DNA of 64,000 nt from sequence record MK327931.1; one strand, 5' to 3'. Below the pieces are notes generated by a model. That model worked only from the letters and a program-made list of their open reading frames with translations, was not told the origin of the DNA and ran no database searches. This DNA is from Escherichia phage vB_EcoM_G17. Position numbers and translations under genes: made by a program. Every line of letters starts with the position of its first letter. Positions within the stretch are counted from its first letter, which is position 1. Shown piece by piece: positions 15,694 to 15,784 of this stretch.

Positions 15694-15784
15694 CGAAAGA
15701 GGTGGGATTTGAACCCACGAAGCGTTATTTCTAACACTTGCTCGCTTAGTAGGCGAGTGCAATCAACCGCTCTGCCACCCTTCC
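15694..15784 (-). tRNA. type II tRNA-Ser-like, anticodon ACU as folded
   Basis: 5' end GGAAGGGTGGCAGAGCGGTTGA closely parallels tRNA-Ser; anticodon stem CTCGC/GCGAG with loop CUACUAA; 6-bp variable-arm stem; T-arm GTGGG-TTCAAAT-CCCAC; acceptor has two G-U pairs. Confidence 0.55.

Follow-up and report, generated by a model that had tools for sequence, protein, structure and literature searches.

Compact tRNA clusters that suit A- and U-ending codons are known from the T4-type phages, in which T4 and RB51 encode tRNA-Ser(UGA), tRNA-Thr(UGU), tRNA-Ile(CAU), tRNA-Asn, tRNA-Arg(UCU) and tRNA-Gly(UCC), and the cluster described here resembles them in both respects. In T4, some tRNAs are encoded without CCA and are processed from multimeric precursors, and the tRNAs that lack an encoded CCA receive it from the host enzyme. 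The RB51 cluster, however, contains no anticodon with adenosine at position 34 (A34), and its sole serine tRNA is tRNA-Ser(UGA). The U-ending codon of a two-codon box is normally read by a G34:U wobble pair. Sister phages of the phage examined here (PBECO4, SD-15_S21, A4, BF17, WPEC5 and Turkey5) carry a tRNA-Ser(GCU), which is expected to read both AGU and AGC. A gene-encoded A34 is found in Mycoplasma tRNA-Thr(AGU), yeast mitochondrial tRNA-Arg(ACG) and a mutant Salmonella tRNA-Pro(AGG), and in this the tRNA-Ser(ACU) gene described below is similar to them; however, the known unmodified-A34 tRNAs come from reduced genomes, where they serve four-codon boxes and each reads several codons, whereas the phage tRNA-Ser(ACU) belongs to a split two-codon box, in which a different amino acid would be inserted if codons ending in A or G were read, and it is found in phages of ordinary bacteria. 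Reviews and an experimental study from 2024 (PMC11066159) speak of unmodified A34 tRNAs as "extremely rare" and raise the question of why they are "essentially absent" from the tRNA sets found in nature.

The gene was studied in Escherichia phage vB_EcoM_G17 (MK327931.1), of which one stretch of 64,000 nucleotides, referred to here as the window, was analysed. The region is 100% identical to that of Escherichia phages vB_EcoM_phAPEC6 and Sharanji, two Asteriusvirus jumbo phages with genomes of about 350 kb, and "tRNA-Ser(act)" is already annotated in the GenBank records of 121Q and Sharanji. ARAGORN placed one minus-strand cluster of seven tRNAs in the window, Thr(UGU), Asn(GUU), CAU, Ser(ACU), Arg(UCU), Ser(UGA) and Gly(UCC), and assigned positions 15693-15784 of the minus strand to a tRNA-Ser with the anticodon (act); this prediction begins one base upstream, at 15693, and has the anticodon at its position 35. 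The Rfam tRNA model RF00005 matched positions 15694-15784 with a score of 49.9 bits, compared to a gathering score of 29 (E = 1e-8), and the match is full-length (model positions 1-71); the minimum-free-energy fold of the 91-nt RNA is a cloverleaf. Read directly, the RNA is GGAAGGG-UG-GCAGAGCGGUUGAUUGC-A-CUCGC-CUACUAA-GCGAG-C-AAGUGUUAGAAAUAACGCUU-C-GUGGG-UUCAAAU-CCCAC-CUCUUUC-G, and its 7-nt anticodon loop is C32-U33-A34-C35-U36-A37-A38. Both ARAGORN and Rfam support an A34 that is encoded in the gene, in place of the G34 of a tRNA-Ser(GCU) isoacceptor.

The remainder of the molecule was compared with what is expected of a type II tRNA-Ser. The long variable arm is present, as is the discriminator G73, which sets serine tRNAs apart from leucine and tyrosine tRNAs (A73). 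The identity pairs of bacterial tRNA-Ser are G1-C72, G2-C71, A3-U70 and C11-G24; in the window gene, G1-C72, A3-U70 and C11-G24 are present, but pair 2-71 is G-U and not the G-C that is usual in serine tRNAs. The acceptor stem contains two wobble pairs, G2-U71 and G6-U67, and the ACU alleles of phages EJP2 and Munch, which are described below, have G2-C71. The D arm is nearly equal to that of the window's own tRNA-Ser(UGA). An earlier note on this DNA, made from the sequence, had described a type II serine-like body with the anticodon ACU as folded, and this description was correct overall: the long variable arm, G73 and C11-G24 are seen in both the sequence and the fold, ARAGORN and Rfam agree on the anticodon, and model-based folding assigned no other. 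The length that it gave for the variable-arm stem, 6 bp, was wrong, as the minimum-free-energy fold shows 8 bp closed by GAAA, and it left unstated the strand, which is the minus strand. Its remark that A34 is unusual for a serine isoacceptor was likewise right. The coordinates of the gene, of its parts and of the neighbouring tRNA genes are collected in Table 1.

Table 1. The tRNA-Ser(ACU) gene, its parts and the neighbouring tRNA genes, in window coordinates.
Feature	Position	Strand	Basis
tRNA-Ser(ACU) gene, 91 nt, type II (long variable arm), no encoded CCA	15694..15784	-	ARAGORN, Rfam, fold, 16 isolates
Acceptor stem, 5' strand GGAAGGG	15778..15784	-	Sequence and Rfam alignment; partner CUCUUUC at 15695-15701
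D arm GCAGAGCGGUUGAUUGC, 3-bp stem including C11-G24, GG in loop	15759..15775	-	Sequence, Rfam, fold
Anticodon stem-loop CUCGC-CUACUAA-GCGAG	15741..15757	-	ARAGORN, Rfam, fold
Anticodon ACU, positions 34-36 (plus strand AGT)	15748..15750	-	ARAGORN; sequence, with flanking U33 and A37
Long variable arm AAGUGUUA-GAAA-UAACGCUU, 20 nt, 8 bp and GAAA tetraloop	15720..15739	-	Minimum-free-energy fold
T arm GUGGG-UUCAAAU-CCCAC	15702..15718	-	Rfam, fold
Acceptor stem, 3' strand CUCUUUC, and discriminator G73 (15694)	15694..15701	-	Sequence
8-nt spacer CAAAUUUC at the place of a would-be CCA, followed by the next tRNA	15686..15693	-	Sequence
tRNA with anticodon CAU, atypical 90-nt allele, adjoins Ser(ACU)	15596..15685	-	ARAGORN, Rfam
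tRNA-Asn(GUU), same cluster	15519..15591	-	ARAGORN, Rfam
tRNA-Arg(UCU), reads AGA/AGG, the other half of the AGN box	17214..17290	-	ARAGORN, Rfam
tRNA-Ser(UGA), the other serine tRNA of the phage, D and T arms like those of Ser(ACU)	17295..17384	-	ARAGORN, Rfam
tRNA-Gly(UCC)	18104-18176	-	

The surroundings of the gene were also inspected. In the region corresponding to window positions 15500-18200, the tRNA slots are mosaic across Asteriusvirus; a single slot is filled by Ser(ACU) in some phages and by Ser(GCU) in others, and both genes are present in EJP2. Where the window has its Arg(UCU) gene, 121Q has a gene annotated as Leu(taa), which ARAGORN did not call, and WPEC5 and Turkey5 have HNH homing-endonuclease genes within the tRNA region. 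Three tandem 165-nt ORFs, corresponding to gp218-220 of Sharanji, lie between Arg(UCU) and Ser(ACU) at roughly window positions 16700-17190 of the minus strand; each overlaps the next by 4 nt, and two or three copies are present in relatives. The CAU tRNA, called as 'tRNA-Met(cat)', has a 17-nt variable region, a D loop without GG, and the T loop UUAGAAU, in which A replaces the near-invariant C56. The same slot in 121Q, PBECO4, BF17 and EJP2 holds ordinary alleles of 74-79 nt, and these resemble an RB51 tRNA annotated as Ile (CAU; similar to T4 tRNA-Ile); because of this resemblance, the CAU tRNA of the window may be an Ile2-type tRNA that reads AUA. The AUA codon occurs 14.6 times per 1000 codons in the window. 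The tRNA-Gly(UCC) gene has the lowest Rfam score of the cluster (41.7 bits), and a non-standard pair was flagged in its anticodon stem. In the UE-S1 paper, eight tRNAs, two of them serine tRNAs, are listed for a sister phage without further comment, and from these numbers and the seven-tRNA cluster of the window, the phages concerned seem to have no separate Ser(GCU).

Conservation of the gene was examined in GenBank. The 91-nt allele was 100% identical in 17 records, which represent 16 phage isolates from several continents, and it is therefore not a sequencing error. In many of the same phages, the surrounding 500 bp (tRNA genes included) aligned in stretches of about 94-97% identity at about 50-72% coverage. 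In the six sister phages named above, the same slot, upstream of the CAU and Asn tRNAs, is occupied by Ser(GCU). The two kinds of gene have in common a type II body, the loop C32 U33 N34 C35 U36 A37 A38 and the AGY box; however, the window gene has A34 and not G34, its variable arm is longer, it encodes no CCA, and every stem, including the acceptor, D, anticodon and variable stems, differs between the ACU and GCU alleles, always with compensation. EJP2 has a diverged ACU allele that encodes CCA; its anticodon stem-loop is shared with the window gene, its acceptor stem, variable arm and T arm differ, and separate Ser(GCU) and Ser(UGA) genes are present in the same phage. Among more distantly related jumbo phages, Ser(ACU) genes with the same loop on a different, compensated anticodon stem, ACGGU/ACCGU, were found in Salmonella phages Munch, 7t3, SE_PL and PHA46, in Klebsiella phage fENko-Kae01 and in Erwinia phage Hallingskeid, and the discriminator in this Munch group is A. 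In their 3' halves, the Munch ACU tRNA and the PBECO4 GCU tRNA are nearly identical.

A wider distribution was revealed by a scan of IMG/VR with a pattern made up of a CTACTAA loop, a type II-length gap and a T arm of the form GGGTTCRAATCCCNC. The pattern matched 101 stretches, 100 of the loci were new and 92 of these were tRNA-Ser(act) according to ARAGORN, and Ser(ACU) was found in about 95 IMG/VR contigs; most of these loci lie in tRNA arrays, and a locus contains 7 tRNAs on average. Since the loop and a portion of the T arm were set by the pattern, loop conservation within the IMG/VR set arises by construction, and the long arm is present in all homologues, but was demanded by the search pattern for most of them. 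When the same pattern was applied to 185,579 bacterial and archaeal species, with one genome per species, 53 stretches matched, 33 of which are tRNA-Ser(act), and the cellular matches include Polynucleobacter isolates, Patescibacteria and other MAG contigs. Tenericutes and Anaeroplasmatales MAGs also carry tRNA-Ser(ACU), and on some Patescibacteria contigs the ACU gene lies beside GCU or UGA serine tRNAs. One Polynucleobacter isolate has Ser(ACU) on four contigs, and most of these copies adjoin Gly(CCC), two of them also Thr(CGU); the occurrence on four contigs with recurring neighbours suggests that the Polynucleobacter copies may be located on a mobile element. Cultured phages were searched by BLAST with nine diverse ACU tRNAs, and only Xanthomonas phage XaC1 and Rhizobium phage RHph_TM30 were confirmed as ACU, the latter being annotated as tRNA-Ser(act); the matches in CBB, SynMITS9220M01, Akh-2 and NiceHouse are UGA or GCU serine tRNAs. 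As for other A34 tRNAs outside arginine, Leu(AAG), Thr(AGU), Ala(AGC), Ser(AGA) and Asp(AUC) were called in few IMG/VR arrays, and some A34 calls in viral loci are doubtful, such as a 96-nt 'Phe(AAA)' in two loci. Apart from Arg(ACG), other A34 anticodons are few in the collected viral loci, and no general use of A34 by phages is claimed.

The collection of Ser(ACU) genes comprised 134 members, 91 of them unique, with 44 different anticodon stems that are nearly all fully paired; the discriminator is G in 71 of the 91 unique sequences. Covariation was measured in 48 distinct viral sequences, in an alignment confined to the acceptor, anticodon and T stem-loops, and standard pairs were present in 98.8% of cells compared to 75.7% in shuffles, with the acceptor register picked for maximal pairing. 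Changes on both sides were observed in 14 of the 17 pairs, including all acceptor and anticodon-stem pairs, none of 500 shuffles reached any of the five covariation measures, and slid registers did not come close either. The median identity of the ACU tRNAs to the nearest GCU tRNA is 0.78, indicating that the two are not close copies of one another. A narrower pattern gave at least 120 GCU-type matches in IMG/VR compared to 62 for ACU; GCU-type genes are clearly more numerous, and the ACU genes form a substantial minority. The anticodon stem-loop of the window gene, GCACUCGCCU-N-CUAAGCGAGC, was also found with U34 in tRNA-Arg(UCU) genes of unrelated IMG/VR viral contigs, so that one stem-loop, placed in different tRNA bodies, is used for either half of the AGN box.

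Codon usage was determined from 17,345 codons in 93 long window ORFs. Among the serine codons, AGT ranks first, with 387 occurrences (22.3 per 1000), and AGC occurs 56 times; the AGT/(AGT+AGC) fraction is 0.88, compared to a T-ending share of 0.73 in the other two-codon NNY boxes. In E. coli, AGU is used less than AGC. The other tRNAs of the window suit heavily used A- and U-ending codons, namely UCA, ACA, AGA, GGA and probably AUA. Across de-duplicated viral tRNA arrays of equal G+C, the AGT fraction was 0.71 at ACU loci and 0.62 at GCU loci (p = 2.5e-4), and the AGT excess over other NNY boxes was +0.025 at ACU loci and -0.025 at GCU loci (p = 0.016); it should be noted that this association is modest, that ORF calling was crude and that the contigs are not phylogenetically independent, and it is used as supporting evidence only. 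Since ACU pairs with AGU, which is a serine codon, the anticodon and the serine-type body agree with each other, and the recoding role that had been considered in the earlier note is not implied.

Altogether, the structure of the gene, its conservation, the covariation among its homologues, the match to codon usage and the published behaviour of the ACU anticodon in E. coli point to a functional phage tRNA-Ser that keeps A34 and reads a single codon, AGU, through a Watson-Crick A34:U3 pair, and this reading is given a probability of roughly 70%. The tRNA would be expected to read AGU only, whereas the Ser(GCU) of the sister phages would read AGU and AGC, and it would work like the phage tRNAs that compensate codon usage and not as a GCU isoacceptor, a TadA substrate or a suppressor. 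For its expression and processing, we infer that Ser(ACU) would be transcribed together with its neighbours in the phage tRNA cluster, that RNase P would cut the 5' ends of Ser(ACU) and of the downstream tRNA, that host exonucleases would trim the 3' trailer, and that the host CCA-adding enzyme would supply CCA. Seryl-tRNA synthetase recognises the long variable arm, G73, and pairs of the acceptor and D arms, but not the anticodon, and the host enzyme would be expected to charge Ser(ACU); t6A37 would probably be formed, as in other U36-A37 tRNAs. The tRNA would then add decoding capacity for AGU, the top serine codon of an AT-rich phage, with the rare AGC codons presumably read by host tRNA-Ser(GCU) and AGA and AGG by the phage tRNA-Arg(UCU) and host tRNAs. 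With its two acceptor G-U pairs, G2-U71 among them, and no encoded CCA, the window allele could be a poorer substrate than its counterparts in EJP2 or Munch.

The changed wobble base could instead reflect escape from a host tRNA-cleaving defence, in which case the ACU tRNA would survive, or replace, a tRNA-Ser that is cut at the GCU loop, and its codon specificity would be secondary. According to three published reports, phage tRNAs evade anticodon nucleases, retron effectors and PARIS via differences in the anticodon loop (PMC10264068, PMC11555353, PMC11464382). ApeA cleaves the anticodon loops of serine tRNAs, among others, and the window ACU gene occupies the slot in which relatives have Ser(GCU), both of which fit with such an escape. 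However, no tRNA-Ser(GCU)-specific nuclease was identified in this analysis, the loop differs from that of GCU tRNAs only at position 34, EJP2 retains both an ACU and a GCU gene, and the link to AGU preference points to a decoding role. Escape from cleavage is thus an unlikely explanation, although it is the best of the alternatives; escape and AGU decoding are not mutually exclusive and could act together.

Less likely again is that host TadA, or an enzyme of the phage, deaminates A34 to inosine, in which case the tRNA would read AGU, AGC and AGA and would place serine at some AGA arginine codons. The anticodon stem-loop of the TadA substrate of E. coli, tRNA-Arg2(ACG), CUCGG-CUACGAA-CCGAG, is nearly the same as that of Ser(ACU), with a single difference in the loop, at position 36, and this resemblance would favour modification. 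The loop flanks C32, U33, A37 and A38 are common to both tRNAs, most genomically encoded A34 tRNAs become inosine tRNAs, and E. coli TadA partly modifies the non-cognate anticodons AUG and AAG (PMC11066159). However, the motif that bacterial TadA recognises is U33-A34-C35-G36, with G36 strictly preferred (PMC10586758), and the Ser(ACU) loop has U36 instead. The natural mRNA editing sites of E. coli are UACG in 15 of 15 cases, and the promiscuous sites observed on overexpression of tadA mutants, namely AACG, UAUG, CACG, GACG as well as UAAG, still keep the G (PMC10027721). Furthermore, Schmitt, Tittle and Fisk expressed 15 ANN anticodons in E. coli in one orthogonal tRNA, the loop flanks of which match tRNA-Arg2, so that its ACU version carries CU-ACU-AA, as in the phage Ser(ACU) (PMC11066159). 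No inosine was found in the ACU version by cDNA sequencing, and it read AGU at 9.4% and AGG at 0.36%, with AGC and AGA below detection; these values come from an M. jannaschii tRNA-Tyr body (PMC11066159), and their transfer to Ser(ACU) may be inexact.

The coding content of the phage also bears on the state of A34. Inosine at this position would cause AGA to be read as serine, though AGA is fairly common in the window (163 codons, 9.4 per 1000) and the phage carries tRNA-Arg(UCU), and such misreading would be costly. A tblastn search (E <= 0.01) with E. coli TadA showed no sign of a TadA-like gene in about 35 Asteriusvirus genomes among 222 matching records, which is a weak negative. Taken together, the specificity of TadA, the E. 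coli data on ACU and the cost of misreading AGA indicate that A34 of Ser(ACU) most likely stays unmodified; modification by an unrecognised phage enzyme could occur. The inosine-type decoding of AGN codons that had been suggested for this gene is therefore unlikely, and unlike tRNA-Arg2(ACG), Ser(ACU) combines U36 with a type II serine body and is expected to contain no inosine.

A decaying or non-functional gene, that is, a Ser(GCU) gene with a G34A mutation that is maintained by hitch-hiking, is more improbable still. The wobble pairs G2-U71 and G6-U67 and the missing CCA would be consistent with decay, as would the Rfam score of Ser(ACU), which is lower than those of four of the six other tRNAs of the cluster, and the turnover of the mosaic tRNA slots in this phage group. 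However, the gene is identical in 16 isolates despite diverging surroundings, and all of its stems differ from those of the GCU allele with compensation, which rules out a point mutant or a sequencing error of Ser(GCU). In addition, several diverged alleles retain ACU, as do about 130 genes in which covariation is strong, and the identity to the nearest GCU tRNA is low (median just 0.78). Conservation thus argues against a pseudogene, which had been named beforehand as an outcome that would undo the interpretation. Finally, an amber suppressor or shifted-register tRNA, a reading which had been singled out as worth excluding and for which the two CUA triplets of the loop CUACUAA would speak, can practically be discounted, because bases 3-5 of the 7-nt loop are ACU between the canonical U33 and A37, CUA would require a non-canonical register without a 5' U33, ACU reads the sense codon AGU and no stop codon, and standard-code ORFs of the minus strand cover 78% of the window and end in TAA (52), TGA (30) or TAG (7 of 89), so that TAG is an ordinary, though rare, stop and not a reassigned one.

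The functional tRNA-Ser with A34 accordingly remains the preferred reading, and "tRNA-Ser(act)" calls in phage genomes are to be kept as real genes and not treated as errors or pseudogenes. Among open-access papers and preprints, no paper was found that discusses phage tRNA-Ser(ACU) or phage A34 tRNAs; the gene is known as an annotation, and its breadth across phages and its likely reading of a single codon appear not to have been described before. The broader proposal, that phage Ser(ACU) tRNAs form a widespread and undiscussed natural class with an unmodified A34 in a two-codon box and strict reading of AGU only, is judged to stand at about even odds. If this is true, these tRNAs would provide, from nature, a counter-example to the rule by which extant tRNA sets essentially lack unmodified A34. 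If A34 is unmodified, phages use a dedicated Watson-Crick reader for one codon, which bears on how tRNA sets are tuned to codon usage. Sharanji grows on E. coli K-12 MG1655, and the phage would thus be a tractable model for why cells avoid A34, in which it could be tested whether A34 gives phages speed, accuracy or nuclease resistance. The finding brings no new mechanism; it is a conserved exception, which was not expected and which is accessible to experiment, to a regularity that has long been seen in tRNA sets.
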